Positions 5,438 to 22,079 of a DNA stretch of 24,000 nucleotides are shown in pieces; the stretch's first letter is position 1, and each line of letters begins with the position of its first letter. Source of the stretch: Rhizobacter sp. Lineage in GTDB: Bacteria; Pseudomonadota; Gammaproteobacteria; Burkholderiales; Burkholderiaceae_C. The stretch lies in assembly GCA_046595475.1 (NCBI GenBank), contig JBKJOQ010000059.1; one strand, written 5' to 3'. A program made the position numbers and the translations under genes. Under the pieces are notes generated by a model, which was given only the letters and a program-made list of their open reading frames with translations, was not told where the DNA came from and did not search any database.

Positions 5438-6427
5438 ATGAAGCCAATGCTTGTGTCAGACGTCGGTTGGTGCATCGCGATGAAGGATGTCTTTACCGCA
5501 TGCGGCCTGGATGCTGAGGCCTTGCTCGCGAAAGCCGGTTTCAACTTCAGCGGTACCGACCAGGTCGACGTCACCGAACTGACCGACGCGTTCAGCCGCG
5601 CGTGGGAATTGGCTGTCGCGCAAACGGGCAACCCGGCGATCGGCCTCACCGCACCGTCGCACCCGCTGAAATCACTGGGCGTGCTGTCGCACATGGTGCT
5701 GTCGGCACCCGACTTGCGCGGCGCCATGCAAGCCATCGTGCGCTTCACGCACCTGATCTCGCCGACCGCCACCTTCGATGCCAAGCTCGATGGCGGCAGC
5801 TGCTTTCTGATCCTTGAAATCGCGCCTGGCCGCAACCCGGTGCCGAGCCAGCGCTACGACTTCTACTCCACCGTGCTCTTGCAAGCCGCGCGCTGGATCA
5901 CCGGGCGCCACCTGACGCCGCGGGCCTTCTATCACCCGGCGCCCACGCCCGCCGACCCCACGCCGTGGCATGAGGCCTACGGCTGCCCGGTGCACTTCGG
6001 CAGCAGCAAATGCATGCTCGAGTTGTCGAGCGCCGACCTCTCGCTGCCGATTCCCACCGCCGACCCGCGCGTGGCCGACCTGTGCGACCGCCTCGCCACG
6101 CAAGTGGCTGAGCAGCAAGGCGGCTCGGTCAGCATCCGCGTGCGCCAGGCACTGCAAAAGATCATCGCCAAGGGCGAGCCGCGCCGTCAGACAGTGGCCA
6201 CCATGCTGTGCATCAGCGAGCGCACCTTGCAGCGTCGGCTTACCGAAGAAGGCACGAGCTTCGCCGAGCTGGTCGACGAAGTGCGGCGCGAACTGGCGCA
6301 GCGCTACTTCAAGCACAGCACCATCAGCTCCACCGAAATCACCTTTGCGCTGGGCTTTGCCGACCCCAGCAATTTCTATCGTGCATGCAAGCGCTGGTTT
6401 GGTCGCTCACCCAGCACCATGCGCTAA
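5438..6427 (+). CDS. AraC family transcriptional regulator (N-terminal AraC-binding-like domain + C-terminal HTH)
   Basis: The C-terminus ...ISERTLQRRLTEEGTSFAELVDEVRRELAQRYF...STEITFALGFADPSNFYRACKRWFGRSPSTMR is a classic double-HTH AraC signature. GGAGAG RBS 7 nt upstream of the ATG. Confidence 0.9.
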   Translation: MKPMLVSDVGWCIAMKDVFTACGLDAEALLAKAGFNFSGTDQVDVTELTDAFSRAWELAVAQTGNPAIGLTAPSHPLKSLGVLSHMVLSAPDLRGAMQAIVRFTHLISPTATFDAKLDGGSCFLILEIAPGRNPVPSQRYDFYSTVLLQAARWITGRHLTPRAFYHPAPTPADPTPWHEAYGCPVHFGSSKCMLELSSADLSLPIPTADPRVADLCDRLATQVAEQQGGSVSIRVRQALQKIIAKGEPRRQTVATMLCISERTLQRRLTEEGTSFAELVDEVRRELAQRYFKHSTISSTEITFALGFADPSNFYRACKRWFGRSPSTMR

Positions 6428-6451: not shown

Positions 6452-6910
6452 ATGATCGAAAGCGCCGAAGCGTTTGCCGAGATGGTCAACAGCACGCCTC
6501 CCGACCCGTTTCGTCTGGCCTGGGCCGAAGCGCCAACGGCGGTGTGGTGGGAGCTCGTGGATCGCTATCCGCATCTGTCGGCCTGGGTGGCTGCAAACCG
6601 CACCGTGCCTGAGGAAGTGCTGGCGCATCTCGCATCCCATGGCAACACACAGGCACGCACGGTCGTGGCCTCCAAGGCCCAACTCCCTGAGCAACTGCTC
6701 TTGATCCTGGCGCACGACAAAGACGAAGCCGTGCGCCTGCGTGTGGCGTTCAATGCGCTGGCCACCCGCGAGGTGCTGGCTTCGCTCGCCAGCGACGCCT
6801 GTCCCGTCGTGCGCATGCACGCGCAAGCGCGCCTCACCCACGGCATCAGTGGCAACAACTTGCCCGCGTCGTATCTCGACTCCGTCAGCCTCGCAGACCT
6901 GCTGCACTGA
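6452..6910 (+). CDS. Hypothetical protein with leucine-rich-repeat-variant / HEAT-like helical repeats
   Basis: Repeats of roughly 23-24 aa: PEEVLAHLASHGNTQARTVVA / PEQLLLILAHDKDEAVRLRVA / TREVLASLASDACPVVRMHA. It starts 24 nt after the AraC stop, so it is probably co-transcribed. No clear RBS. Confidence 0.55.
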   Translation: MIESAEAFAEMVNSTPPDPFRLAWAEAPTAVWWELVDRYPHLSAWVAANRTVPEEVLAHLASHGNTQARTVVASKAQLPEQLLLILAHDKDEAVRLRVAFNALATREVLASLASDACPVVRMHAQARLTHGISGNNLPASYLDSVSLADLLH

Positions 6911-7236
6911 AGGCGACTGCGCCTCTCCACGGGCCGCATAGACGCGCGTCACCCACGCGTGATGAGCCACGCTCCAAAAATTGGGGCGGAATGGTACTAG
7001 GCGAAAACCCTCTCCGCGTTTGAGTGGTTCCGCGGGCCATGAGCTTGGCCCGATCGGTCAGTGCCATTCGTGAACCAACTAACGATCATCGCGCTGCGCC
7101 TCTGACGAACGCTTCACCGGGCCAGCAACGCTACCGCACCGCCAGTCCGGGTCGGGCACAACCCATGAGGGTCGGGGTACAAGAAGTGCGCGAGTCCTAC
7201 TTCAACTTACAGCAACAACTATCTGGAGATCCAAAC

Positions 7237-7770
7237 ATGAAACTGATCAAACTGTCCGTCCTCGCCGCAGCCCTGGTGCTGAGCTTCTCTGCTTCCGCCG
7301 CCATGACCCCCATCAGCGACTCCGCCCTCAGCGAGGTCACGGGCCAAGACGGCGTGACGATCGCAGGTGACCTGAAAATCAACATCGGCTCGTTCCGCTA
7401 CACCGACACCGACGCCACCGGCGGCTCCGTGTCGTTCAACAACATCGGCATCAACGGCATGTTCGTGATGACCGTGGACATCCTCAATGCCGCAGCCTTC
7501 TCGGGCGGCGTGGGTGCGGCCATGGTCAGCCACGGCCTGACGGCTGCTGAAGCCGCCACGAACCTCACCGCACTGGTGACCAACGGCGTGTACGACAACG
7601 CCAGCGACGTGGTTCAGTTCGCTTTCCCCGCTGCCAACCTCGACACCCGCCTGACCCCGAGCATCTCGGTGGCCTCGATCACCATGGGCCACAGCACGCG
7701 GTCGTTCGGCAGCGTCGCCTTGAACAACATCGACCTGCAAGGCACCAAGATCTGGCTGTGGGCTCACTGA
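7237..7770 (+). CDS. Secreted leader-motif protein P1 (177 aa), candidate major subunit of the cluster
   Basis: GGAG RBS 8 nt upstream. Sec signal [21 protein letters not shown], followed at once by [14 protein letters not shown]. The mature part is Cys-free and G/N/S/T/A/V-rich, with an internal repeat [12 protein letters not shown] / [12 protein letters not shown]. The track ORF start at 7024 was rejected. Confidence 0.8.
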
Positions 7771-7824
7771 GCCATGAGTTGACGGCGCCCTCTCTCTTTG
7801 GGCGCTAGCTCGATGCATCGTTAG

Positions 7825-7860
7825 GCCCCGTGGCCCTCCCGCCACGGGGCATTTGTGTGT
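7825..7860 (+). terminator. Stem-loop (10-bp perfect GC-rich stem) + T-rich tail after P1: terminator or attenuator
   Basis: GCCCCGTGGC-cctccc-GCCACGGGGC at 7825-7850, followed by ATTTGTGTGT. It lies in the 157-nt gap between P1 and P2. Confidence 0.6.
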
Positions 7861-7927
7861 CGCGCTCGTGTGTTGCATCGCTTGCCACTCACTTACCCAA
7901 CTTCGAACCGCCCTATGGGCCACCACC

Positions 7928-8731
7928 ATGCCAGTCCGTTTCACATTCGCTGTTTGCCTCGTCGCCGCTCTGTGTGGCGCGGGCACGGCTGTGCACGCCC
8001 AGGGTGTGGCACTGGCCGACAGCGAACTCTCCAACGTGTGGGGCCAGGCGCTGCTGGACCTCACCAACACCAGCCTCAACGGCTACGACTTCTCTCGAAT
8101 CACGCTTGGCGCCGACATCCAGCTCAGCGCCAACTTGAGCAACGTGCGGCTGGGCGAATACAGCTACGCCGCGCGGAACGCGACCGGCGCCGACATTGAC
8201 CTCGGCCTGTTTCGCTTCGGGCGCAGCGATGGCACCGACGCACAGCGCACGGTGAGCATCACCGACCCCTACTTCGAATTCGTCTACAAGAACAACAGCG
8301 ACGCAGCCACACGCGAAGTGGTGGGCATGCGCCTGGGCTTCGGCAGCATCAAGGGCGATCTCGGCGTGCAGCTCAACGCCGTGAGCGGCTCCTTGCTGAT
8401 CAACGGTGGCGCGCTTGGCACGCTCGATTCGCGCAGCGACACGCTGGGCGGCAAGCGCTGGGACGGCGGGAGCTGCGGCGCCAGCGCCTGCCCCTTCACG
8501 CTGGCACAAATCAGCACGCTTACCGCCGGAGACGCCAGCGGCCCCAGCCGCGACTTCTTCATCTCGGTGCTCAAGCAGGCCGTGCAGTTCCCCGGCACCA
8601 GCGCCGCTGTCGGCGCATCAGACCCGGCGCTGGCCGGCTTCTGGCTCAACTGGCGCGATCGTCTCTCCGCGACCGGACTCAACCAGCCGGTGCCACCCAA
8701 CCTGCCCAAGCTGGCCATCGGCGGCGGCTGA
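7928..8731 (+). CDS. Secreted leader-motif protein P2 (267 aa)
   Basis: Sec signal MPVRFTFAVCLVAALCGAGTAVHA, then QGVA-LADSELSNVWGQ. Start chosen at the Met that yields a signal peptide; the track start at 7853 lies in the terminator tail. Confidence 0.72.
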   Translation: MPVRFTFAVCLVAALCGAGTAVHAQGVALADSELSNVWGQALLDLTNTSLNGYDFSRITLGADIQLSANLSNVRLGEYSYAARNATGADIDLGLFRFGRSDGTDAQRTVSITDPYFEFVYKNNSDAATREVVGMRLGFGSIKGDLGVQLNAVSGSLLINGGALGTLDSRSDTLGGKRWDGGSCGASACPFTLAQISTLTAGDASGPSRDFFISVLKQAVQFPGTSAAVGASDPALAGFWLNWRDRLSATGLNQPVPPNLPKLAIGGG

Positions 8732-8733
8732 AC

Positions 8734-9654
8734 ATGATGCGCAGTACCCGCTCCTTGTCAGCGCATGCCCTGTGCGCGCTCACCTTGCTGGCCAGCGCCG
8801 CCTGCCACGCCGGCGGCCTGCAGCCGCTGAACGACGCCGAGCTGTCGGCCGTGAGCGGTGCCGACGGCCTGGCCTTCAACCTGCGCGGCTTCTCGCTCTC
8901 GGGCCCGATCACGTTGACCTACACCATGCCCGGCCCGGCAGGCAATTCGCTGTGGCTCTCAGACTTCGCGCTGTCGCGCAGCGACGACCTGGCCACCACC
9001 TTCAGCGACCCCTACCGCCTGCAAGTGCTGGCGCGCGGCAACGGCCTCGCCGATGTGATCCGCCTGAGCGAACCAGAGAACGCCAACGGCTTGCTCAAGT
9101 GGCAGTTCGCTGCCGACTGGGGCGTCAACGCCGATGGCATGAGCTTTCATGGCGGTGCGCTGGTGGTGCAAGACCTGGTCACCCGCGGCGGCAGCCTGAC
9201 GCTGACCACCCCCGCGGCCGCTGACGTGGAAGGCATTGCCTTCGGCGCCGCCCTGCGCATCGACATTGCCAACCTGATGCTGCGCCCGCGCGGCCGTGAC
9301 GACACCAGCAACCCCGACCCGGCCACTGTGAGCGAGCAATGGCGCTTGTCGGGCATACACCTCGGCGCGGCCTCCAGCAGCGGCGTGCTGCTGGGCTCGC
9401 CGTGGGCGATTGCCGATGCCACCACCCAGCCGGGCATCGTCAACGCCGTGACCGATGCCAGTGGCAACTCGAACCTGCACATCGGCATCGACTGGCCCAC
9501 CAACGGCAACAGCGCAGCCATCGGCGGCCTGCTGATCGACAACATCACGTTCAAGAGCAGCACCCTGCCCGGCGGCATGCTCGATCTGGGCTCGAGCCGC
9601 GTTGGCACGATGCAGATCCAGTACCTAGACGTGAAGCTCAGGGCGGGGTTCTAA
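8734..9654 (+). CDS. Secreted leader-motif protein P3 (306 aa) with an OMP-like C-terminus
   Basis: Signal MMRSTRSLSAHALCALTLLASAACHA, then GGLQP-LNDAELSAVSGADG. Ends in ...QIQYLDVKLRAGF (alternating hydrophobic residues, terminal Phe). Only 2 nt after the P2 stop. Confidence 0.75.
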   Translation: MMRSTRSLSAHALCALTLLASAACHAGGLQPLNDAELSAVSGADGLAFNLRGFSLSGPITLTYTMPGPAGNSLWLSDFALSRSDDLATTFSDPYRLQVLARGNGLADVIRLSEPENANGLLKWQFAADWGVNADGMSFHGGALVVQDLVTRGGSLTLTTPAAADVEGIAFGAALRIDIANLMLRPRGRDDTSNPDPATVSEQWRLSGIHLGAASSSGVLLGSPWAIADATTQPGIVNAVTDASGNSNLHIGIDWPTNGNSAAIGGLLIDNITFKSSTLPGGMLDLGSSRVGTMQIQYLDVKLRAGF

Positions 9655-9655
9655 C

Positions 9656-10120
9656 GTGCGTGCCTTTTTCCCCCTGTTGCTGCTGGTACCGATGCTGGCC
9701 TGCGCCAACCCGGTGGCCTTGAGCGACGAAGAACTGTCTGGCGTCTGCGGTCAAGACGGCATCGGCCTGGCCATACACCTGGAACTGAATTCGGCGCTGA
9801 TCGCAAGCGGCGTCTTGAACAGCAGCCTCACCGCCGGCTTCAAGGTCAACGGAACGACCACCTATGCCGTGGTGCAAAACCTCGGCGGTGTGCTCGACCT
9901 GATCGGCCTCACGCTCAACATCCACACCCGCAGCGACGGCGGCGGCGATTACATCGACCTGGGGCTGCCCAGCTTCGTTGGCTTCAAGCAGTTCGGGTTT
10001 CGCGCCCTGGGCGCGCAGACCGACCCCAGCGCCGCGATTGCACCGAGCGGCAGCTACGGCCAGGTGCTTCTCAACGGCACGGGCACGATGACCGGCCACC
10101 TCTTGATCTGGGCGCAATAG
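9656..10120 (+). CDS. Secreted leader-motif protein P4 (154 aa)
   Basis: GTG start 1 nt after the P3 stop. Signal MRAFFPLLLLVPMLACA, then NPVA-LSDEELSGVCGQDG. The C-terminus GQVLLNGTGTMTGHLLIWAQ aligns with the P1 C-terminus [20 protein letters not shown]. Confidence 0.75.
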   Translation: MRAFFPLLLLVPMLACANPVALSDEELSGVCGQDGIGLAIHLELNSALIASGVLNSSLTAGFKVNGTTTYAVVQNLGGVLDLIGLTLNIHTRSDGGGDYIDLGLPSFVGFKQFGFRALGAQTDPSAAIAPSGSYGQVLLNGTGTMTGHLLIWAQ

Positions 10121-10138
10121 CGCCGACTAAGGCACAGC

Positions 10139-10903
10139 ATGTGGATGATCCTGCTCGGCGTGGCCGCCGTGTTGATCAGCGGTGCGGGCATCAGCTCGCA
10201 AACACCGCCTCAACCGCAACCCAAAGACAAGTTCGAGCTGCCGATGGCACGCGTGGGCGGCGGCCCCGCGCCCGACACCGTGGCCATCGTTCCGTACTCG
10301 GAATTCAAGTACCAGAACATCGTTCGCCAAGCCTACGACTACAGCTGCGGCTCGGCCGCGCTGGTGACCGTGATGAAAAGCTACCTCGGCGTTCAAGTCT
10401 CCGAGGAGCAGGCCATGGAAGGCATGCTGGCCCACGGTGAGCGCGAGAACATCGTGACGCGGCGCGGCTTCTCGCTGCTCGACATGAAGCGCTACCTCGC
10501 CACGCTGGAGATCAGCTCAGCGGGCTTTCGCGCCGAGATGTCCGACCTGGCCACGCTGAAGGAGCCCGGCATCGTGCCGATCGAGTACGCCGGCTTCAAG
10601 CACTTCGTCGTGTTCCGCGGCCTGCGCGACGGGCGCGTGTACCTGGCCGATCCGTCCATGGGCCACATCACCTTCCCGGCGGAAGAGTTCGCCAAGCTGT
10701 GGGACCGCAACACCCTGTTCGTGCTGTACCCGGCCAAGAACAACCCCGTCACCCTCAGCAAGCTTGCGCTGACCGACCGCGAGCTGGGTGTGATCGACGG
10801 CGACCTGGTTCGCACTGAAGCCATCTTCCCCCAACTCGACCGGACCGAAGCCCTGCGCAGCGCAGTGCAATCGGGGCTCGGCACCTTCAACTTGCGAAAA
10901 TGA
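10139..10903 (+). CDS. Stand-alone C39-family (bacteriocin-processing type) cysteine peptidase, signal-anchored/periplasmic
   Basis: N-terminal hydrophobic segment MWMILLGVAAVLISGAG. The block RQAYDYSCGSAALVTVMKSY has Gln 6 residues before the catalytic Cys (codon 10346-10348). Downstream are FKHFVVFRG (His) and YLADPS (Asp). AAGG RBS. The stop overlaps the next start (ATGA). Confidence 0.85.
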   Translation: MWMILLGVAAVLISGAGISSQTPPQPQPKDKFELPMARVGGGPAPDTVAIVPYSEFKYQNIVRQAYDYSCGSAALVTVMKSYLGVQVSEEQAMEGMLAHGERENIVTRRGFSLLDMKRYLATLEISSAGFRAEMSDLATLKEPGIVPIEYAGFKHFVVFRGLRDGRVYLADPSMGHITFPAEEFAKLWDRNTLFVLYPAKNNPVTLSKLALTDRELGVIDGDLVRTEAIFPQLDRTEALRSAVQSGLGTFNLRK

Positions 10904-11949
10904 AAGCAGCCCTCTTCATCCCCCTCCTGCTGCTCTGCAGCGCGGTCACCGCCCAGACCACCGCTCCCGCACCAGACACGCCAGCCGCGCCGGCCACGCC
11001 TGCCTCGGCCCCCGCCACAGCCGACGCCGCACGCGGCGCCCTCGCCAAGAAAGAAGGCGACTTCGACCAGGCCAAGCTGCTGAAAGAAACGCTCACCGCC
11101 TCCGACAAGCAGTACTCACTGCTCAAGACGGGCAAATACGCCGTCACCTACGACCTCACCTACTCGTACATCGGCCAGCAGCAGATCCAGGCCGCGTTTA
11201 CCGACTCGCTGCTCACGCTGTTCGACATCCAGAACACGCGCTCGCACACCGTCACCAACACCGTGTCGACCGACTACGGTGTGAAAGACAACTTCACTGC
11301 GAACGTGACGCTGCCCTTCGTGAGCAAGTATTCGCAGTCCGAGGCCTTCACCGGCTTGTCCAGCGCGTTTGGCGACATCTCAATCGGCGCGCGCTTCCAG
11401 CCCTTCTCGCTCAGGCGCGATCTGCCCACGTTCACCGTCACCGGCGGGCTGCGCCTGCCCACCGGCCGCAGCCCCTTCAAGACCATCGACGGCCAGGGCC
11501 TGGCCACCGGCGCCGGCTACACCTCGGCCACGGTGGGCATGAACGTGTCGCAGGTGGTCGACCCCGTCGCGCTGTTCGGCTCGCTCAACCTCACGCTCGG
11601 CAAGAGCGCCAAAGGCCTGAGCCAAACGCGTGCCGGCAAAACCCTGACCGAAGTGCACCCCGGTGACAGCATCGGCTTCGGCTTCGGCATGGCCTACGCC
11701 ATGTCGTACAACATCTCGACCACGGTGGCGTTCCAGGAGTCGGTCTCCGCACGCAGCCGGCTCTTCCTGCGCGACAGCAATGGCGTGGACTCTGACGTCA
11801 AGACCGCCCCGCAGACCTCGGCCATGCTCAACCTGGGTCTGGGCGTGCGGGTCTCGCCTCTCACCACGATCAACTTCACCGTGGGCATAGGCCTGAGCAA
11901 CGACAGCCCCGACTTCACCCTCGGCATGAACATGCCGCTGCATTTCTGA
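10900..11949 (+). CDS. Outer-membrane beta-barrel protein (resembles the MetA-pathway/phenol-degradation 'transporter' OMP family) with an N-terminal PT/A linker and charged helix
   Basis: Signal MKAALFIPLLLLCSAVTA. It is followed by a low-complexity stretch, QTTAPAPDTPAAPATPASAPATADA, and a charged segment, ALAKKEGDFDQAKLLKETL. The rest shows alternating beta-strand patterns and ends ...FTLGMNMPLHF (terminal Phe). Family assignment is from pattern memory, not a search. Confidence 0.72.
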   Translation: MKAALFIPLLLLCSAVTAQTTAPAPDTPAAPATPASAPATADAARGALAKKEGDFDQAKLLKETLTASDKQYSLLKTGKYAVTYDLTYSYIGQQQIQAAFTDSLLTLFDIQNTRSHTVTNTVSTDYGVKDNFTANVTLPFVSKYSQSEAFTGLSSAFGDISIGARFQPFSLRRDLPTFTVTGGLRLPTGRSPFKTIDGQGLATGAGYTSATVGMNVSQVVDPVALFGSLNLTLGKSAKGLSQTRAGKTLTEVHPGDSIGFGFGMAYAMSYNISTTVAFQESVSARSRLFLRDSNGVDSDVKTAPQTSAMLNLGLGVRVSPLTTINFTVGIGLSNDSPDFTLGMNMPLHF

Positions 11950-11959
11950 GCGCAGCGCC

Positions 11960-13591
11960 GTGATCTCGAAAGCGCCTAGCCCGCGCGCGGGCCGCAGGGC
12001 CCTGGCGGCCTGCGCCGCGGCCGCCTCGGTCGTGGCGGCACTGCCGGCACGCGCCGCCTTCATCGAAACCATCGGCACGAGCCCGGTCGCCATGTCGCTC
12101 GGCAACGCTGTGACGGCCGACCCGCCCGGCCTCGACGCCATCCACTTCAACCCGGCCGGCCTGACGCACATCAAGGGCAACACGCGGCAAGACACCATCT
12201 TCGGCGCGTCGACCAAGCCTTACGCCCACTTCACGCAGCCCGCTGGCTTCGACATCGGAGGCTTTAAAGACGACCCGCTGGCCAACACCTCGACCGGCCC
12301 GGTGCGCCAGGCCATCTACCTGCCCATCGTCGGCCCGCCCAAGGCGCGCCTGCCCTTCGGGCTTGCCGCCGGCTTGGGCTTTGCTTACCACGAAGAAGGC
12401 TCGCCCTGGACCTTCGCCACCGCCACCTATCTGCCGCAAGCCGTGGGCTTTGACCGCAGCCGCGACCCGAACGACCCCGGCCGCTACGACGGGCGCCGTG
12501 TCGTGATCCAGCGCCTGGTCTACCTTTCGCCCTCGATCGGCTACAAGGCTTCGGACACCTTGAGCCTGGGCATTGCAGTGCCCATCGCGCACCAAGGCTT
12601 TGCGCTCAACACCGACATGCGCTTCCCCAACAAGCTGCTGGGCGTCATCGGCAAGCTGCAAGACGCCTGGTGCGGCGACAACAGCAACCCACTCGACGCG
12701 TTCGCCTTCGGCCTGTGCGACGGTGGCAACAAGGCCGGCCACCTGCGCCCGTTCGAAAAAGCCGGCAGCATGGAATTCGAGATGACCTCGCCCGCCGACC
12801 CGACGCTCAACCTCGGTGTGCTGTGGGAGCCCAAGAGTTGGTTTGGCATGGGTGCCGTGTACCAGTCGGGCTCCAAGACCGTACTCACCGGGCGCTACAG
12901 CTTTCAGTCGGAAGAGATGTTCCGCAGCTTCGTGCATGGCATGTACAGCAGCCTGCTCGGGCCAGTGGTGGCCTCGACCTTCGGCTTCCCGACCTCAATC
13001 CCGCCCATTCAAAGCGGCAACGCCACGCTGATCATGCCGCTGCCCGAGCACATTCAGGTGGGCATCAAGTTCAAGCCCTTCGAGCGCGTGCAGATCAACT
13101 TCGACGCCAACTGGACGCACTGGAAAGACTGGGACAAGCTCACCTTCCAGTTCGACCAGCCGGTGGCCCTGCTGGAGATGGCGCGCATTTTCGGCCAGAC
13201 CGATTCATCCCGACTCGTCATTCCGCGCGGCTACAAGAGCACCATCCACTACGGTGTGGGCCTGCAAGTGCGCGTGACCGATTCGCTCATGCTGCGCGCC
13301 GGCTACGAGCCGCGCAAGGCCTCGGTGACAAACTCGGTGCTGGACCTCATCGCCCCGCTACCCGACGTCACCATCAAGAGCCTCGGGGTCGGCATTCGAA
13401 CCCACGACGGCCTGCAAATCGACCTGGGCGCAAGCTACGCCAGCGGCAAGTTCAACATCCCTGCCGAGGGCAGCTGCAACTTGAATTGCAGCAACTTCTT
13501 CAACGCCGTTTACAACCCCTATGCCGGCCTCGACGTGAGCGGTGGCATCCGCATCCGCTACTACGGCATCACCCTGTCCAAGCCATTCTGA
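11960..13591 (+). CDS. Outer-membrane transport protein, OMPP1/FadL/TodX-like (543 aa)
   Basis: GTG start. Signal ...AASVVAALPARA. The N-terminal block GTSPVAMSLGNAVTADPPGLDAIHFNPAGLTHI is typical of the FadL family. Ends in IRIRYYGITLSKPF. Longer than the typical roughly 430-aa FadL. Confidence 0.8.
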   Translation: MISKAPSPRAGRRALAACAAAASVVAALPARAAFIETIGTSPVAMSLGNAVTADPPGLDAIHFNPAGLTHIKGNTRQDTIFGASTKPYAHFTQPAGFDIGGFKDDPLANTSTGPVRQAIYLPIVGPPKARLPFGLAAGLGFAYHEEGSPWTFATATYLPQAVGFDRSRDPNDPGRYDGRRVVIQRLVYLSPSIGYKASDTLSLGIAVPIAHQGFALNTDMRFPNKLLGVIGKLQDAWCGDNSNPLDAFAFGLCDGGNKAGHLRPFEKAGSMEFEMTSPADPTLNLGVLWEPKSWFGMGAVYQSGSKTVLTGRYSFQSEEMFRSFVHGMYSSLLGPVVASTFGFPTSIPPIQSGNATLIMPLPEHIQVGIKFKPFERVQINFDANWTHWKDWDKLTFQFDQPVALLEMARIFGQTDSSRLVIPRGYKSTIHYGVGLQVRVTDSLMLRAGYEPRKASVTNSVLDLIAPLPDVTIKSLGVGIRTHDGLQIDLGASYASGKFNIPAEGSCNLNCSNFFNAVYNPYAGLDVSGGIRIRYYGITLSKPF

Positions 13592-13597
13592 TCTGCC

Positions 13598-14161
13598 ATG
13601 AAAACTCTGATCACACGCACCATGGTTCACGCCACCCTGGCCTTCACGCTGCTCGCCTGGGGCAACGCGGCCTTGGCGCAACAGGCCGCCACCGACGAAA
13701 AGCAAAAGCTGGTGCAGCGCGTGCTCACGCTGTGGCACATCGAAGACACCGCTGTGGTCATGGTGCAGCGGCCCGCGCTTGACGCCATGCAGCAGGCACG
13801 CATCGCTTTGCAAGGGCGCGTGGGCGCGGCCAAGCAAGAGGCCACGCTGAAAGACATCGCCACCGACCTGCAGAAATACATCGACGAAGCGACGCCCATC
13901 GTGAAAGAAAACGCCAAGCGCGTGAAGGCTCCCACGCTCACCCCGCTGCTGATGCAGAACTTCAATGAAGAAGAGCTGCGCCAGCTGATCGCTTTGCTCG
14001 AATCACCGGTGAAGAAGAAGTTCGAGCAGTTGGTGCCGCAATTTGAGCGTGCCTTCGGCGAGAAGGTCGCAGCCGATGCCCACGCCGCGATCGACCCCAA
14101 GCTGCAAGAGATGACCAAAGCGGTGGGCTTGAAGCTTCGCGCGGCTTCTATGACTCCTTGA
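13598..14161 (+). CDS. Periplasmic DUF2059-like protein
   Basis: Signal MKTLITRTMVHATLAFTLLAWGNAALA. The mature part is all-helical and K/E/Q-rich, with the block FNEEELRQLIALLESPVKKKFEQL that matches my recollection of DUF2059 (F..eEl..l..Fy.sp.g.k). 6 nt after the FadL-like stop. Confidence 0.65.
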   Translation: MKTLITRTMVHATLAFTLLAWGNAALAQQAATDEKQKLVQRVLTLWHIEDTAVVMVQRPALDAMQQARIALQGRVGAAKQEATLKDIATDLQKYIDEATPIVKENAKRVKAPTLTPLLMQNFNEEELRQLIALLESPVKKKFEQLVPQFERAFGEKVAADAHAAIDPKLQEMTKAVGLKLRAASMTP

Positions 14162-14197
14162 CGTAACCCATGACGTGACCCCATACGGTTCGTTCAG

Positions 14198-14259
14198 CTC
14201 CGTTCGGCCTGAGGTATCGAAGGCCAGCGCCGGGCTTCGATACCTCAGCCCGAACGGAG
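14198..14259. repeat. 62-nt near-perfect inverted repeat (25-bp arms, 1 mismatch, 12-nt loop)
   Basis: CTCCGTTCGGCCTGAGGTATCGAAG (14198-14222) pairs with CTTCGATACCTCAGCCCGAACGGAG (14235-14259). No U-tract follows. It lies in the only sizeable gap (144 nt) within the distal part of the cluster. Confidence 0.8.
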
Positions 14260-14305
14260 ATGGGGGGCTGTTGGGCTTAGACGACCAGCCTTGTGACCTG
14301 ACCCT

Positions 14306-16036
14306 ATGACAACGATGCACCCCTTGCTGACCCAGCGCCTGCTGGCACTGCTGCTGGCAGCCCTGCTCACGGCCTGCGGCGGCGCCACCACGGGCGGCGT
14401 CTCGGCCACGCCCTCGGGCGCGGCGGCCTTGTCGCTCAGCCTAGCCGGCAGCGCGCACCCTGGGGTCGACCATGTGTGGGTAACGGTCAGCGCGGTTGCC
14501 CTGCACACCGACGCTGACCGCGCCTGGTCGCCCACCGACACCAGCTGGCAGGTGATGCCGCTGGCGCAGCCGCTCACGATCGACATCGCCTCGCTGACCA
14601 ACGGCGTCATCGCCTCGCTCTTCAGCGGCAAAGCCCTGGCGCCTGCCACCTACACGCAGCTGCGGCTGTTCGTGCTGGCACACGACGACACACTGGCCGC
14701 GTCGGCCAAAAACCTGAGCCTGCTCTACAACGCGCAAGTCAGCAGCACCGACAGCGCAGGCACCGTGCACCAGCTGCCGCTAGAAATGCCCGGCACCAGC
14801 CTGGGCCTGCGCGTGGGTTTGGGCGTGGACGCAGGTGTGGGCGACCCGATCACGGCGATCGCCAGCACGCTCAGCAGCATCACGCTGCAGTGGGATCTGG
14901 AACACAGCCTGGTTCATTTCACCGCCGACGATGGGGTGGACCGCTACACCCTGCGCCCCGACCTGCGGGCCTTTGACCTGGCCCGCACGGGCGCCATCGT
15001 CGGCTTGATCGACAAATCGCTGCTGTGCAGCGCCGGCACACGCAACGGCTGCATAGACAACATCGTGATCACCGCCCAGCTGCCAGCCAGCGATGGCAGC
15101 GCCAACGTGAGCGTGCGTTCCACACCCGTGACCGTGGGCGCGAGCTATGCCCTCTTTGCGCTGTACCCACTGCCGGCGTCGCCCACCGGCCAGTTCGACG
15201 TGGTGATCCGCGGGCGCAACATGCAGACCATGGTGGTGCGCCATGTGCCGGCAAGCACCGCCGACCTGCTGGCCACGGCGCCCACGCAGCTCGGCGCCAA
15301 CCCGGGCGACCCCGCCCATCCCATTCCGATGCTCCCCGTGCTGAGTGCGCAAGGCGATGCTCAGGCCAGCCTCTCAAGCGCGCTGTCGCCGCACAGCGCT
15401 CAGCTGGTGTTCGGCCAGACGCTAGCGGGGACGGGTGAGCTGCCCTACGAAGTGGTGATTGCCAACACCGACCCCTTCACTGGCTTGCTCGCGCAGCCCG
15501 TGGCATTGCCCAGCGGCCCGCTGCGCGTGGCGACCTATTCGGCCGACGCGGTGCTCAGCTTCAGCGACGTGACACCGCAAGAAGGACCAGACCGCTACAC
15601 GCTGCGCGCCCACGGGACGCGCTACGACGACCCAGGTGCGCCCAGCAGCGTGTTGGCTACGGGTGGCAGCAATTTCAGCGTGGCTGCGGCCAGCCCACAA
15701 CGCAAAAACACCCTGGGTCTCGCAACGCTAACGCTCAGCGTGAGCGGCGGCTCAACGCAGCGTTTCGACGCAGCGCAAGTGCTGGTGACCGACGTGGCAG
15801 GCATCGTGAGCACGCAAGACATCTCGGCGCTCATCGGCCAGAGCGGTGCGCAGGTCTCGCTGCCGTTGCCCGCAGGCGCGATTGCCGCCGCGCTCGGCGG
15901 CACGGCGGTCTACACCGTGGAAGTGCGCGCCTGGCAACGCGCCACACCCGCGCAGAGCCTGCAGTGGGTGCGCGTGCCAGCGCCGCTTGACCTGCGCAAC
16001 ACCAGCTCGGCCAGCGTGGCCATCACGCTGCCATAG
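14306..16036 (+). CDS. Large lipoprotein, DUF4382-like N-terminal domain (576 aa)
   Basis: Lipobox LLAALLTAC-GG. The N-terminal region ...VDHVWVTVSAVALHTDADRAWSP...LTIDIASL...TYTQLRLFV resembles DUF4382. The remainder is Ala/Ser/Thr/Val/Leu-rich and beta-rich. The start codon (14306 vs 14315) is uncertain. Confidence 0.68.
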   Translation: MTTMHPLLTQRLLALLLAALLTACGGATTGGVSATPSGAAALSLSLAGSAHPGVDHVWVTVSAVALHTDADRAWSPTDTSWQVMPLAQPLTIDIASLTNGVIASLFSGKALAPATYTQLRLFVLAHDDTLAASAKNLSLLYNAQVSSTDSAGTVHQLPLEMPGTSLGLRVGLGVDAGVGDPITAIASTLSSITLQWDLEHSLVHFTADDGVDRYTLRPDLRAFDLARTGAIVGLIDKSLLCSAGTRNGCIDNIVITAQLPASDGSANVSVRSTPVTVGASYALFALYPLPASPTGQFDVVIRGRNMQTMVVRHVPASTADLLATAPTQLGANPGDPAHPIPMLPVLSAQGDAQASLSSALSPHSAQLVFGQTLAGTGELPYEVVIANTDPFTGLLAQPVALPSGPLRVATYSADAVLSFSDVTPQEGPDRYTLRAHGTRYDDPGAPSSVLATGGSNFSVAAASPQRKNTLGLATLTLSVSGGSTQRFDAAQVLVTDVAGIVSTQDISALIGQSGAQVSLPLPAGAIAAALGGTAVYTVEVRAWQRATPAQSLQWVRVPAPLDLRNTSSASVAITLP

Positions 16037-16054: not shown

Positions 16055-16465
16055 TCAATGCCCGGGTTCGGCCTTTTTGGGCGGCGGCACCATCAAAAAT
16101 GGAAACGGCAAGGCCAGCATAGGCAGAAAGAGCGTGTCCAGCGGCAGGGAGACGGTGGCCGCCGATGCGCTTTGCACCAGGCCCACCGAACCGAGCGTGG
16201 TCACGGCGGCGAACTTGTATTGCGCCAGGGCTTGCTGGCGATCGAAGTGAGCCCAGTCCATCCAAGGTGAAGCAGCGGGCGCGGTGTCGGCACTGCCCAG
16301 CAGAATGTTGCGCAGCAGCGGGTCGCTCAGGCCGGCGGCGTGCACGGCCGACAGTTCGCTGTCAGCCAGCAGGCGCCCGGGGCTTTCCATCGCCTGGCTG
16401 GCCACGGTGATCAAGGCGAGCAAGGGCGCGGCCAGGCTCCGCACAAGAACGCGGGTGTTTTTCAT
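16055..16465 (-). CDS. Secreted leader-motif protein P5 (136 aa), divergent paralogue with a hydrophobic Pro/Phe-rich tail
   Basis: GGAG RBS 6-7 nt upstream of the ATG at 16465. Signal MKNTRVLVRSLAAPLLALITVASQA, then MESPGRL-LADSELSAVHAAG, with the motif G-[QA] replaced by A-A. C-terminus LDTLFLPMLALPFPFLMVPPPKKAEPGH. Convergent, 18 nt from the lipoprotein stop. Confidence 0.6.
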   Translation of the reverse strand: MKNTRVLVRSLAAPLLALITVASQAMESPGRLLADSELSAVHAAGLSDPLLRNILLGSADTAPAASPWMDWAHFDRQQALAQYKFAAVTTLGSVGLVQSASAATVSLPLDTLFLPMLALPFPFLMVPPPKKAEPGH

Positions 16466-19036: not shown

Positions 19037-20752
19037 TCACGCCAAGGGCGCGACCGCGACGCGGTTGCGCCCTTCTTTTTTGGCCCGGTAAAGCGCGTTG
19101 TCGGCCTGCTCCAGCAGCTGAGCGGCATCGAGCCGCGCGTGACCCAGGCACAGCCCGATGCTGATGGTGACGCTCAAGCCTGCGGCCACCTCGTCCCAGC
19201 CGTGGCCTTCGATGGCCGCGCGCAGCCGCTCGCAGGCCTCACCGGCCCACTCGAGCGTTGACGAAGCAAAGACGATCAGAAACTCTTCGCCGCCCGTGCG
19301 TGCGATCAGATCGCCGCCGCGCACACGCGCACGGAACAGGTCGGCCGTGGCCATCAGCACTGCATCACCCACGGCATGCCCGAAGCGGTCGTTCACCTGT
19401 TTGAAGTGATCGAGGTCGAGCACCGCCACAGCCAAAGGGACACCGGTGCGCGTGCTGTGTGACATGAGGCGCGGCAGCTCGCGCTCCACCTGGCGGCGGT
19501 TGCCCAGGCCGGTGAGCGGGTCGGCCAGCACATAGCGGCCCAGCTCGCGAGCCTGCGCCTGCAGGCGCTCGGCTTCGGCAGCCATCTGCTCGGCGCGCAC
19601 CCGCTGCAGCTCAGCCTGCATGCGTGAGCGCTCGGCGCCGAAGAGGGCTTGGTCGAGCTCCAGCCGGTTCATCATCAGGCGCGATTGAGCATCACAGCGC
19701 TGTTCCAGCTGCTCTTTGGTGAGGGCGTGGTACGCCTCGTGGTGTGCGAGCGCCTCGCCCAGGTCGCCACGCGCCTTGTGCGCCAGGTAGAGCTGCAGGT
19801 GCATGTCACGCACCATGGCGTTGGCATAGAGCTCTTGGGCGCCGGCCAGCGCTTCATTCAGCAAGGGCACGGCTTCGTCATAGCGCTTGCCTCGCACCAG
19901 CAGCTCGGCGCGGCTGCCATCAGAGGCCAGCACCAGCGCGCGGTGGCCATGCTGCACGGCGAGCGCGCGCGAATGGTCGAGCAGCGTGTAGGCCGCCTTC
20001 TCTTGCCCGCTCACGCCAAGGTAGCGGCCCAGATTCGACAGCGTCAGCGCCTCGCGATAGGCGTTGCCCGACCGGCGCGCCACGTTGAGCGCTTCTTCAC
20101 CATGGCGGCGCGCGCGCTCCATGGCGGCCTGGGCGCCCACGAGGTCACCACGCGATTCAAGGGCGTCGAAGGCATCGGAGGCCACCACTCCCAGGTTGGT
20201 GAGCGCGCGGTAGATCTCTTCTTCGCTTTGCAGCTCGCGCGCCATGGCAAGCGACTCGGCTAGAAATCGCTCGCCCTCTTCGAAGCGCCCCAAATGCCCC
20301 TTGGTCAGGCCCACGCGGTTGTAGGCCAGGCACAGCAGGCCTGCATCACCGCAGGCGCGTGCAGCTTCCACGCTTTCGCTGACGTGGTCTAGCGCCTCGG
20401 CATTCAGACCGAGGTCGAGCAGCGCCATCGCCATGTTGCACAGCACTTCGGCACGCGCCGCGTCGTCACCCGTCTCACGCAGGGTGGGCAGCACGGCCTG
20501 CCCGGCAGCAATGGCCTGCTCAGCCAGGCCTTCGCGGCAATTGAGCGTCACCAGCAGGCGCAGCGCTTTCGAAAGGCTCGCGCTGTCTTGGGCGTCTCGC
20601 GCCAGAGCCTCGGCTCGCAAGGCGAGCTCGATGCCGCGGGCATGCTCGTCCCGCTCGGATGCCTGCTGGGCCTGCTGCAGCAGGGCGATCAGCGAGGCAG
20701 GGGCTGCCGCCACATGTGGCGCGTGGGATGCTTGCGTGCCGGGCGGGTTCAT
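19037..20752 (-). CDS. Diguanylate cyclase: N-terminal TPR-like repeats + coiled coil + GGDEF domain (GGEEF active site, RxxD I-site)
   Basis: GGEEF is encoded at 19280-19294 (minus strand) and preceded by RGGD-LIART, an I-site at the canonical 5-residue distance. VAVLDLDHFKQVNDRFGHAVGD is a typical GGDEF block. The N-terminal two thirds are helical repeats (ALxxxAxA...). Start set at the Met (20752) that avoids overlap with the upstream gene; the start is uncertain. Confidence 0.9.
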   Translation of the reverse strand: MNPPGTQASHAPHVAAAPASLIALLQQAQQASERDEHARGIELALRAEALARDAQDSASLSKALRLLVTLNCREGLAEQAIAAGQAVLPTLRETGDDAARAEVLCNMAMALLDLGLNAEALDHVSESVEAARACGDAGLLCLAYNRVGLTKGHLGRFEEGERFLAESLAMARELQSEEEIYRALTNLGVVASDAFDALESRGDLVGAQAAMERARRHGEEALNVARRSGNAYREALTLSNLGRYLGVSGQEKAAYTLLDHSRALAVQHGHRALVLASDGSRAELLVRGKRYDEAVPLLNEALAGAQELYANAMVRDMHLQLYLAHKARGDLGEALAHHEAYHALTKEQLEQRCDAQSRLMMNRLELDQALFGAERSRMQAELQRVRAEQMAAEAERLQAQARELGRYVLADPLTGLGNRRQVERELPRLMSHSTRTGVPLAVAVLDLDHFKQVNDRFGHAVGDAVLMATADLFRARVRGGDLIARTGGEEFLIVFASSTLEWAGEACERLRAAIEGHGWDEVAAGLSVTISIGLCLGHARLDAAQLLEQADNALYRAKKEGRNRVAVAPLA

Positions 20753-20777
20753 CAAGGTCGCACTGCGGGGCTTGAGA

Positions 20778-22079
20778 TCAAGCGGGCAAGTCGCTGGGTT
20801 GCAAGGCTGTGGCGAGTACCTTGTCGACACGCTTGCCGTCGAGGTCGACCACCTCAAAGCGCCAGCTTTCCCACTCCACCGAATCGGTGGTCTGGGGCAG
20901 GCGGCCCAGCAGCAGCATCACCATGCCGGCCAGTGTGTTGTAGCGGCCGCGGTCTTCTTCGGGCAGGTCTTTCAGGCTCAGGCGGTCTTTCAGCTCCGGC
21001 ACCGGAATCAACCCATCAAAGAGCCAGCTGCCGTCGGCACGTTGGATGGCCCAGGCATCTTCGGCGGCTGGCGTAGTGAACTCGCCTGTGATCGTTTCCA
21101 TCACGTCGCGCACGGTGATCACGCCCTGCACCTCGCCGTATTCATCGACAACAAAAACCAGCTGCGCACTCGACGCCCGAAACTGGTCCAGCAGCTCCAT
21201 GCCCGAGAGCGTTTCGGGCACGAACACCGGCGGTTGCAGCTTTTCGGTGAGCGACAGTGGCTGGCCCTGCAGCTGCTGCTGCAGCAGCGTCTGTGCCGAC
21301 ACCACGCCCAGCACGTCGTTGAGCCCGCCGCGGCACACCGGGTAGCGCGAATGCTCTTGCCCTGCAATGGCTGCGAGCACGGTTTCCAGCGGCGCCACGG
21401 CGTCGAGCCAGACGATGTCAGTGCGCGGGATCATCATCGAGCCCACCGAGCGGTCATCGAGGCGGAACACGTTGCGCACCATCTGGTGCTCTTGCGCCTC
21501 GATCACGCCGGCGTCCAAGCCCTCTTCGAGGCTGGCAGCAATTTCTTCTTCCGTCACCGAGCGGCTGGGGCCACCGTGAATCCCCATCAGGCGCAGCGTG
21601 GCCTCAGTGCACCACGACAGCAGCTTCACGAAAGGCCGCACCGCCAACGAGAGCCACTCCATGGGGTGCGCCACCAGGCGTGCCACGGTTTCGGGATACA
21701 TCTGGCCGACCCGCTTGGGCACCAACTCGCCGAAGATGATGGTCACGAAGGTGATGCACATCACCACCAGCGCGGTCGCTGAGATGCCAGCCATCTTGGG
21801 CGTGACACCAAAGCTGCTGACCAGCCACGCCCCCAACGGCTCGGAAAAAGCCGCTTCGCCGACGATGCCATTGAGCACGCCGATCGAGGTGATGCCGATC
21901 TGCACCGTGGAGAGAAACTTGGTCGGGTTCTCGTGCAGATCCATTGCGACCTGCGCGCTGGAGTCTCCGGTCTCCACCATCACCTGCAGCCGCGCCCGGC
22001 GGCTGGCGGTGAGCGCCATCTCTGACATGGCGAACAACCCGTTGAGCAGTATCAGGAAGGCAAGAAGAGCTGTTTCCAT
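20778..22079 (-). CDS. Hemolysin-family/CNNM protein (DUF21 transmembrane domain + CBS pair + CorC_HlyC domain; TlyC/CorC-like)
   Basis: The N-terminus METALLAFLILLNGLFAMSEMAL is the typical CNNM/DUF21 start. It is followed by ELVPKRV, a CBS pair region (MIPRTDIVWLD...SRYPVC...GVVSAQTLL...VVDEYGEVQGVITVRDVME) and a C-terminal CorC_HlyC region (...NTLAGMVMLLLGRLPQTTDSVEWESWRFEVVDLDGKRVDKV). Confidence 0.9.
   Translation of the reverse strand: METALLAFLILLNGLFAMSEMALTASRRARLQVMVETGDSSAQVAMDLHENPTKFLSTVQIGITSIGVLNGIVGEAAFSEPLGAWLVSSFGVTPKMAGISATALVVMCITFVTIIFGELVPKRVGQMYPETVARLVAHPMEWLSLAVRPFVKLLSWCTEATLRLMGIHGGPSRSVTEEEIAASLEEGLDAGVIEAQEHQMVRNVFRLDDRSVGSMMIPRTDIVWLDAVAPLETVLAAIAGQEHSRYPVCRGGLNDVLGVVSAQTLLQQQLQGQPLSLTEKLQPPVFVPETLSGMELLDQFRASSAQLVFVVDEYGEVQGVITVRDVMETITGEFTTPAAEDAWAIQRADGSWLFDGLIPVPELKDRLSLKDLPEEDRGRYNTLAGMVMLLLGRLPQTTDSVEWESWRFEVVDLDGKRVDKVLATALQPSDLPA

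Follow-up and report, generated by a model that had tools for sequence, protein, structure and literature searches.

The closest described relatives of the system reported here are peptidase domains of the PCAT and AMS kind (PCAT1, ComA, LahT150), FapD of the Pseudomonas Fap functional amyloid system, and FilB of the Acinetobacter baumannii FilABCDEF system. For C39 peptidases the recognition sequence has been defined experimentally as Leu(-12)-x3-Glu(-8)-Leu(-7), the co-crystal of LahT150 with a leader shows contacts through Val-4, Leu-7 as well as Leu-12, and characterised C39 domains accept Gly, Ala or Ser at position -1 (PMC6363468). FapD is periplasmic, its catalytic Cys is needed for secretion of FapC, and its substrate has been unknown since 2017 (PMC5557850). 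The literature on the Fil proteins comprises a "type III pilus" annotation, proteomic work that detected FilC and FilF in pellicles and biofilms of Acinetobacter, and vaccine studies of FilF, and describes no mechanism; my literature searches on FilB, C39 and DUF6160 likewise found no mechanistic study. Here I describe a stretch of 24,000 nucleotides from Rhizobacter sp. (contig JBKJOQ010000059.1; hereafter the window), which encodes a stand-alone, FilB-like C39 cysteine peptidase of 254 amino acids (10139..10903, + strand). I consider it likely that this FilB-type periplasmic peptidase removes the leaders of five neighbouring proteins, labeled P1 to P5, before these are assembled into a filament.

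The peptidase open reading frame (ORF) starts at the first ATG downstream of an in-frame TAG (10118–10120), with an AAGG about 7 nt 5' of this ATG. Its product begins with MWMILLGVAAVLISGAGISS and continues with QTPPQPQPKD. In the AlphaFold2 model, a hydrophobic N-terminal segment (residues 1–21, modeled as a helix over 2–21) and a Pro-rich disordered linker (22–54) precede the C39 core (∼60–205), of which residues 68–205 have a predicted local distance difference test score (pLDDT) of ∼90, and a conserved tail (206–254) is modeled with low confidence. This is the layout that a sequence-only reading of the window had described (a hydrophobic N-terminus, the QTPPQPQPKD linker and a C39 core in a 254-residue ORF), and translation, Pfam and the model bear it out. 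That reading had named a search against the C39 families as a check of its assignment; Pfam places residues 60–195 in Peptidase_C39 (PF03412, 65.6 bits against a cutoff of 22, E = 5e-18), and the fold comparison returns peptidase domains.

The catalytic set spans 10328..10651 on the + strand, as read from the sequence and aligned to the LahT150 and PCAT1 active sites. It comprises the oxyanion Gln (Q64, CAA, 10328–10330), the catalytic Cys (C70, TGC, 10346–10348), the catalytic His (H155, CAC, 10601–10603, within FKHFVVF) and the catalytic Asp (D171, GAT, 10649–10651, within YLADPS). A sequence search of the PDB with the peptidase finds only double-glycine peptidase domains (LahT150, 6MPZ, and PCAT1), whose Gln, Cys, His and Asp line up with its own, and the best PDB matches in Foldseek are the peptidase domains of PCAT1, ComA and LahT (7N87, 5XE8, 3K8U, 6MPZ; TMt 0.69–0.77). 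These best-matching structures are active double-glycine peptidase domains with a papain-like alpha/beta fold. Q64, D67, S69, C70, H155, D171 and P172 do not vary among 40 aligned stand-alone relatives, a diverse set with 28–75% identity, and the four catalytic residues are invariant in a second alignment (A3) as well. The claim of an intact catalytic set made from the sequence holds; loss of C70, the mark of a non-catalytic C39-like domain (CLD), is not seen. Because the Pfam match, the PDB alignment, the AlphaFold2 model, the Foldseek matches and the invariant residues agree, I take the window protein, on sequence and model, to be a catalytically competent C39 peptidase, and not a degenerate C39-like domain.

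The window enzyme thus has the same fold and the same Gln/Cys/His/Asp as the PCAT and AMS domains, but differs from these in having no transmembrane or ATPase domains, and in its proposed action, which would follow Sec export and not take place in the cytoplasm. Its matches to ABC (ATP-binding cassette) transporter models span the peptidase part only, with no transmembrane or ATPase domain fused to it. A Pfam scan of window ORFs did not turn up an ABC transporter among them either, as the sequence-only reading had it.

NCBIfam comparisons place the peptidase in a named family, which that reading had overlooked. The best matches of the four core genes are to FilA, FilB, FilC and FilD, annotated as a "putative pilus system", with FapD and FapF second. 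The peptidase matches the FilB model NF050078 over residues 46–226 with 221.7 bits (cutoff 475; model type 'exception'), and the FapD model NF058616 with 126.7 bits (equivalog cutoff 330); all Fil and Fap scores of the window core genes lie below the curated NCBIfam cutoffs. FilA-, FilC- and FilD-type genes accompany the peptidase gene, and the FilA (DUF6160), FilC and FilD neighbours stand in the same order as in A. baumannii. In contrast to the single FilA gene there, the window encodes four tandem leader proteins, as well as P5. The likeness to FapD had been recognised from the sequence, and is supported by the FapD score and by FapF being the only relative of the adjacent barrel in the PDB; each of the two is a stand-alone C39 protein with a FapF-family barrel as its partner, FapD lying outside the cytoplasm and the window enzyme probably so. 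The differences are that the putative substrates in the window are globular DUF6160 subunits of a helical filament, and not the FapB/C amyloid, that the window has an additional FadL-like protein, and that its peptidase N-terminus is hydrophobic without a charged n-region, and thus not a classical signal peptide. The scanned proteins of the window gave no match to a FapBC domain. The peptidase is therefore a FilB homologue and a cousin of FapD, belonging to a named but functionally uncharacterised kind of periplasmic C39 peptidase.

Free C39 proteins had been described as rare; they are in fact widespread. A search that was exhaustive over 1.84 billion representative proteins gave 1918 clusters (50% identity) of stand-alone relatives at E ≤ 1e-3, and 937 at E ≤ 1e-10. 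The best 150 of these relatives are mostly ∼190–290 amino acids long, and none has the length of a PCAT. When one genome was scanned for each species, at least 595 species genomes proved to carry a relative.

The candidate substrates are five leader-bearing proteins, four encoded upstream of the peptidase on the + strand and the fifth on the - strand (16055–16465); the sequence-only reading was right in counting five proteins with a double-glycine-like motif. P1 (7237..7770, +), the predicted major filament subunit, is a DUF6160 protein (PF19657, E = 1.5e-23). P2 (7928..8731, +), with the leader LADSELSNVWGQ/AL (a slash marks a cleavage site, predicted in the case of C39), has a weak N-terminal match to DUF6160 and a conserved place in the gene order. 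P3 (8734..9654, +; LNDAELSAVSGA/DG) and P4 (9656..10120, +; LSDEELSGVCGQ/DG), the latter a small P1-like protein with the C-terminus LLIWAQ, were both identified by Pfam and motif scan. P5 (16055..16465, -; LADSELSAVHAA/GL), identified from motif scan and ORF, is also small, with a Sec signal and leader. Sequence searches of the PDB with P2, P3 and P4 gave no significant match.

In P1–P4 a Sec signal ending in AxA is followed, 2–5 residues on, by a conserved segment; P5 is built alike, but the distance from signal to segment is slightly greater. In P1, the predicted propeptide (positions -15 to -1) is encoded at 7303..7347 on the + strand, between the Sec site SAA/M and the predicted C39 site GQ/DG. 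The propeptide left after signal peptidase I would be 15–16 residues long, the core length of a double-glycine leader. The leader reads L/M(-15), P/A(-13), L/M/I(-12), D(-10), E/A/D(-8), L(-7), S/A(-6), V/I(-4), G(-2) and Q/R/A/G(-1), followed by D/G(+1) and G/L(+2). In 137 unique sequences from related loci, collected with a pattern that itself demands Gly at -2, hydrophobic conservation is strongest at -4, -7, -12 and -15, and acidic residues are found at -8 to -10; in about 15 additional sequences, -2 is Ala. Positions 21–41 of the FilA profile align to the motif, and the best-conserved leader in Fil-type loci is that of the P1 family. By sequence, the leader of these neighbours is the published C39 consensus except at position -1, sharing the Leu-12/Glu-8/Leu-7/Val-4/Gly-2 recognition pattern of PCAT and AMS substrates. 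It differs from those in having mostly Q or R at -1, as opposed to G, A or S, and in being carried by structural proteins of 150–300 amino acids and not by small peptides. Against the NCBIfam bacteriocin-leader hidden Markov models (HMMs), the leaders gave one match, which is not significant (E = 0.23). The motif is closely linked to the peptidase, 225 of its 233 matches in 1.66 million translated residues of loci lying within 7 kb of a C39 gene.

Independent information on where the mature subunit begins comes from P1. Its AlphaFold2 model (mean pLDDT 84.7) consists of a signal helix, a short helix of low pLDDT at residues 28–35 (-10 to -3 in leader numbering), and a folded domain that starts at residue 39 and is modeled with confidence (pLDDT > 90). 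The only significant PDB match of P1 is 9XFV, "pilus-like-alpha" (E = 8e-16), whose subunit is 53% identical to P1. This helical filament was solved by cryo-electron microscopy (cryo-EM) straight from karst-cave water and assigned to UniProt A0A257CJ09; it served only as a handedness control, and its N-terminus, gene context, biogenesis and processing were not discussed (PNAS 2026, PMC12956863). The 9XFV chain (173 residues) corresponds to residues 38–210 of a 210-residue protein, P0385, in whose genome (locus L082) a syntenic operon encodes, in order, an AraC regulator, P1, P2, P3, P4, C39, FilC, FilD, a 201-residue protein and a convergent P5-like gene. A homologue of the window P1 is thus proven to build a filament. 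The chain opens with DGVSIAGD, directly after TLSTVSGQ in the precursor, and its start coincides with the predicted +1 position (aligned D38). This agreement is strong support for leader cleavage, but not proof, since a disordered, uncleaved leader would give the same model. The five motif proteins had been put forward as substrates from the sequence, and the match to the C39 consensus, the start of 9XFV and the gene linkage of peptidase and substrates all support that proposal, with P1–P4 being DUF6160-like and P5 sharing the leader only.

From the family and fold of the peptidase, its catalytic residues, the gene linkage, the leader conservation and the start of the filament subunit, I infer a cleavage event, its location and its coupling to export, which could proceed as follows. 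The substrates would be exported by Sec, with signal peptidase I cutting after AxA and exposing the propeptide of 15–16 residues, which is of the double-glycine type in all but its last residue. As a short amphipathic helix, this leader would dock in the hydrophobic groove of the peptidase, and C70 would cut after position -1 (in P1, VTGQ/DGVTIAG). Removal of the leader would free a new N-terminal beta-strand and so permit export and polymerisation. The subunit may then exit via the FapF-like barrel, assisted by the FadL-like protein, and polymerise into a helical, pilus-like filament. P1 would be its major subunit, P2–P4 would serve as minor subunits or at the tip, and P5 might form a base anchored in the membrane.

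To see how general this arrangement is, six loci of other stand-alone C39 subfamilies, nearer to FapD, were sampled; this is a small sample. Three of the six are Fap-like operons, in which proteins with FapBC domains are encoded along with a FapF-type barrel, and all six encode at least one adjacent protein in which a Sec signal is followed by a leader of the double-glycine type, for example VPEEELGEVRGG/YAGFYFAFDFSG, MHEKEMSCLRGG/AYYVDFSVG, LSDFELSNIQGK/YAGLYFSFDFSG and VSGDELAGMRGG/LRIGALNFDF. This suggests that precursors with a nested Sec signal and double-glycine-type propeptide are general substrates of periplasmic C39 enzymes. In Fap-like operons from Thermodesulfobacteriota, Deltaproteobacteria and Nitrospiraceae metagenome-assembled genomes, the protein encoded right after the C39 gene (L084, 8732–9325; L086, 8698–9261; L085, 8773–9141) has a Sec signal and a canonical ELxxVxGG leader. 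The small protein encoded by the first gene of these operons has a similar leader ending in G-R, G-K or G-L, and the FapBC-domain proteins have no obvious leader.

The distribution of the motif in Fap-like operons, on the FapE-position and small first-gene proteins and not on FapBC, together with a similar model published for FapE and FapD, could be taken to mean that the window peptidase cuts only minor or initiator subunits, or P5, as a checkpoint for channel opening, with P1 matured by another protease or left unprocessed. I regard this as quite unlikely, given that in Fil-type loci it is the P1 family that has the best-conserved leader, and that the solved P1-type subunit begins at +1.

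I compared the gene context of the 80 best related loci, from Burkholderiales, Pseudomonas, Marinobacter, Oleiphilaceae and others. The C39-FilC-FilD core is fixed: the barrel gene follows the C39 gene in 80/80 loci, and FilD is found wherever the contig extends far enough. At least one homologue of the window leader proteins is encoded within 10 kb in 62/80. In Burkholderiales, P1–P4 homologues are either directly upstream of the peptidase, as in the window, or a few kb away in an operon that is separate or divergent, and in Pseudomonas one DUF6160 gene precedes the peptidase.

Several observations weigh against cleavage of P1–P5 by a periplasmic peptidase of the FilB family. Neither the FilB nor the FapD model of NCBIfam gives the peptidase a score that reaches its cutoff. 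The residue at -1 is Q or R in 107 of the 137 motifs, outside the Gly/Ala/Ser set, and the S1 site would therefore need to be more open. In the Marinobacter, Oleiphilus and Bermanella loci that were checked, C39-FilC-FilD occur with no adjacent DUF6160 or other substrate gene, and the substrates there must come from genes at other places or belong to another kind. The start of the 9XFV chain at D1 could reflect only disorder of the preceding residues. Finally, the N-terminal segment of the peptidase has no positive n-region, the flanking charges give a weak topology signal, and the periplasmic orientation is argued from homology and from the location of the substrates.

The non-canonical -1 residue and the loci with no adjacent DUF6160 gene would also fit a different target: an active periplasmic peptidase could cut a part of the machinery, for example the disordered N-terminus of the barrel, with the DUF6160 motif left uncut as a signal for targeting or for binding a chaperone, and disordered in the filament. 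The FapD literature leaves the target open and proposes FapF or FapE, and the FilC-like protein of the window does have a long, Pro/Ala-rich N-terminal region. However, a motif scan did not find the leader in FilC, FilD or other machinery proteins, the motif of the DUF6160 proteins reproduces the C39 recognition consensus at each position, the solved subunit and the AlphaFold2 fold both start at +1, and neighbours of other periplasmic C39 subfamilies carry a canonical double glycine at the same place. A machinery target is therefore unlikely in my judgement, and removal of the P1–P5 leaders is the reading retained here.

As to location, no charged residue precedes the hydrophobic segment in any of 81 peptidase sequences (81/81), and the next 15 residues are net negative or neutral in 80/81. 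The flanking-charge signal is weak because Pseudomonas members carry a Glu at position 3. The sequence-only reading called the protein signal-anchored; a hydrophobic segment is present, but the anchor was overstated, as the uncharged n-region and the weak flanking-charge signal leave an anchor indistinguishable from a cleavable signal peptide. Either the N-terminus tethers the enzyme through its helix and a Pro-rich linker of ∼35 residues, or the signal is cleaved and the enzyme released. The lack of a positively charged n-region, and the precedent of inactive C39-like domains in type 1 secretion (3ZUA, HlyB), might point to a non-catalytic, chaperone-like domain, or to an enzyme facing the cytoplasm and serving an unlinked exporter of the bacteriocin type. 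Both are very improbable: the Gln, Cys, His and Asp are strictly conserved, the window ORFs scanned include no ABC transporter, and cleavage in the cytoplasm would remove the export signal, because the leaders lie downstream of Sec signal peptides. In addition, the sister-subfamily peptidases carry classical cleavable signal peptides, which speaks for the family as a whole being periplasmic. Most likely, then, the enzyme acts outside the inner membrane, where it would trim a short, bacteriocin-style leader off filament subunits.

The remaining genes of the operon fit into a conserved layout. The FilC-like/FapF-like outer-membrane barrel, the predicted export channel (10900..11949, +; NCBIfam FilC 270 bits, FapF 79.6 bits), has FapF (5O65/5O67/5O68, E = 6e-17) as its only PDB relatives. 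It is followed by a FilD-like outer-membrane protein of the FadL/TodX family (11960..13591, +; PF03349, E = 1e-43; NCBIfam FilD 408 bits; PDB 3DWO, E = 1.6e-5). Next is a secreted helical protein of 187 amino acids (13598..14161, +; weak DUF2059 match), which is kept after FilD in Burkholderiales loci and corresponds to the 201-residue protein of L082. The operon ends in the window with a DUF4382 lipoprotein of 576 amino acids (14306..16036, +; PF14321, E = 1.8e-14; lipobox LLTAC/GG), with homologues only in L002, L003, L006 and L014; since L082 and most related loci lack it, I consider it accessory. These last two proteins have no NCBIfam match at E ≤ 0.01, the presence of FilE and FilF models in that library being unchecked, and at E ≤ 10 the 187-residue protein has two unrelated weak matches. 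P5, with a mature part of ∼95 residues and a C-terminal hydrophobic stretch followed by PPPKK, is convergent to the operon. A counterpart of the same design and convergent position is found in L082 (17162–17650, -), and tblastn matches in L006 and L030 are weak. P5 is possibly a membrane-anchored base or terminator subunit.

An AraC-family regulator (5438..6427, +; Pfam Arabinose_bd and HTH_18) lies upstream, and most Burkholderiales loci, like L082, have such a gene beside the system. Between it and P1 is a gene for a 152-residue leucine-rich-repeat-variant (LRV) protein without signal peptide (6452–6910, +), with a counterpart in L003 (43% identity). P1 is followed by a GC-rich, terminator-like hairpin and T-rich tail (7825..7850, +; 10-bp stem, 9 GC pairs). 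Strong hairpins occupy the P1-P2 spacer of 33 related loci as well, with a median of -25.8 kcal/mol per 45 nt, a value taken without shuffled control. This hairpin is probably an attenuator setting the ratio of major to minor subunits. A gene for a TPR-GGDEF diguanylate cyclase (19037–20857, -) lies 3 kb downstream, and may be connected with the fibre operon through regulation.

Further features vary between loci. The P1 gene is duplicated or triplicated in tandem in L005, L019, L024–L030, L032, L033 and L037 (Roseateles and many Oxalobacteraceae), and the P1 family has conserved ends with a hypervariable, insertion-prone centre (alignment A4); this suggests surface or antigenic variation. In L069 (Marinobacter alexandrii, 6998–14648), L049, L051, L052, L054 and others, the C39-FilC-FilD core has no DUF6160 gene beside it and is flanked instead by a large LuxR/MalT-type regulator and a 372-residue lipoprotein. 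In the window the peptidase TGA (10901–10903) overlaps the barrel-gene ATG (10900–10902). The sequence-only reading was correct on this ATGA (10900–10903), but the stoichiometric co-expression drawn from it does not carry over, the overlap being found in only ∼6/79 related loci, most of which have gaps of 20–60 nt; translational coupling through the ATGA was rejected for the same reason. The peptidase tail (10754–10900) has a family-wide conserved LxLxDxEL(G/R)VxD motif and an aromatic-basic C-terminus, and may be a docking site for the barrel. I also considered the tail segment LALTDRELGVIDGD as a pseudo-substrate. It scores -10 to 0 on the position-specific scoring matrix (PSSM) of the leader, against ∼30 for real leaders, its resemblance to a leader is not significant (median z 0.8, with 4/81 below 5% of shuffles), and AlphaFold2 models it with a pLDDT of 53–62 and without docking; this candidate was rejected.

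In its functional logic, the proposed step resembles the type IV prepilin peptidase (PilD/PulO), a dedicated enzyme which cuts a short leader off the N-terminus of pilins ahead of their assembly. PilD is however an unrelated, polytopic aspartyl protease at the cytoplasmic face, and the pilin, the leader and the assembly machine are all different.

The window operon offers an unusually clear pairing of enzyme and substrates, predicts the scissile bond for every one of the five proteins, and links these to an orphan cryo-EM filament structure; the motif also extends to Fap-like operons. Together with 9XFV, it turns the question of what periplasmic C39 enzymes cut into a precise, testable prediction. 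A broader proposal, on which I am evenly divided, is that FilB, FapD and many unnamed subfamilies constitute a general second step of leader processing in Gram-negative bacteria, in which fibre subunits would leave through Sec with a nested double-glycine-type propeptide and a dedicated C39 enzyme would take this off in the periplasm, licensing export through FapF-type barrels and polymerisation; that the DUF6160 filament represents a widespread, unclassified class of pilus with its own equivalent of a prepilin peptidase; and that the substrate of FapD is the leader-bearing protein at the FapE position. If true, cleavage of the leaders would define a maturation step for a widespread surface-fibre pathway (at least 595 species genomes), and the accessible periplasmic cysteine protease would be a possible anti-biofilm target.

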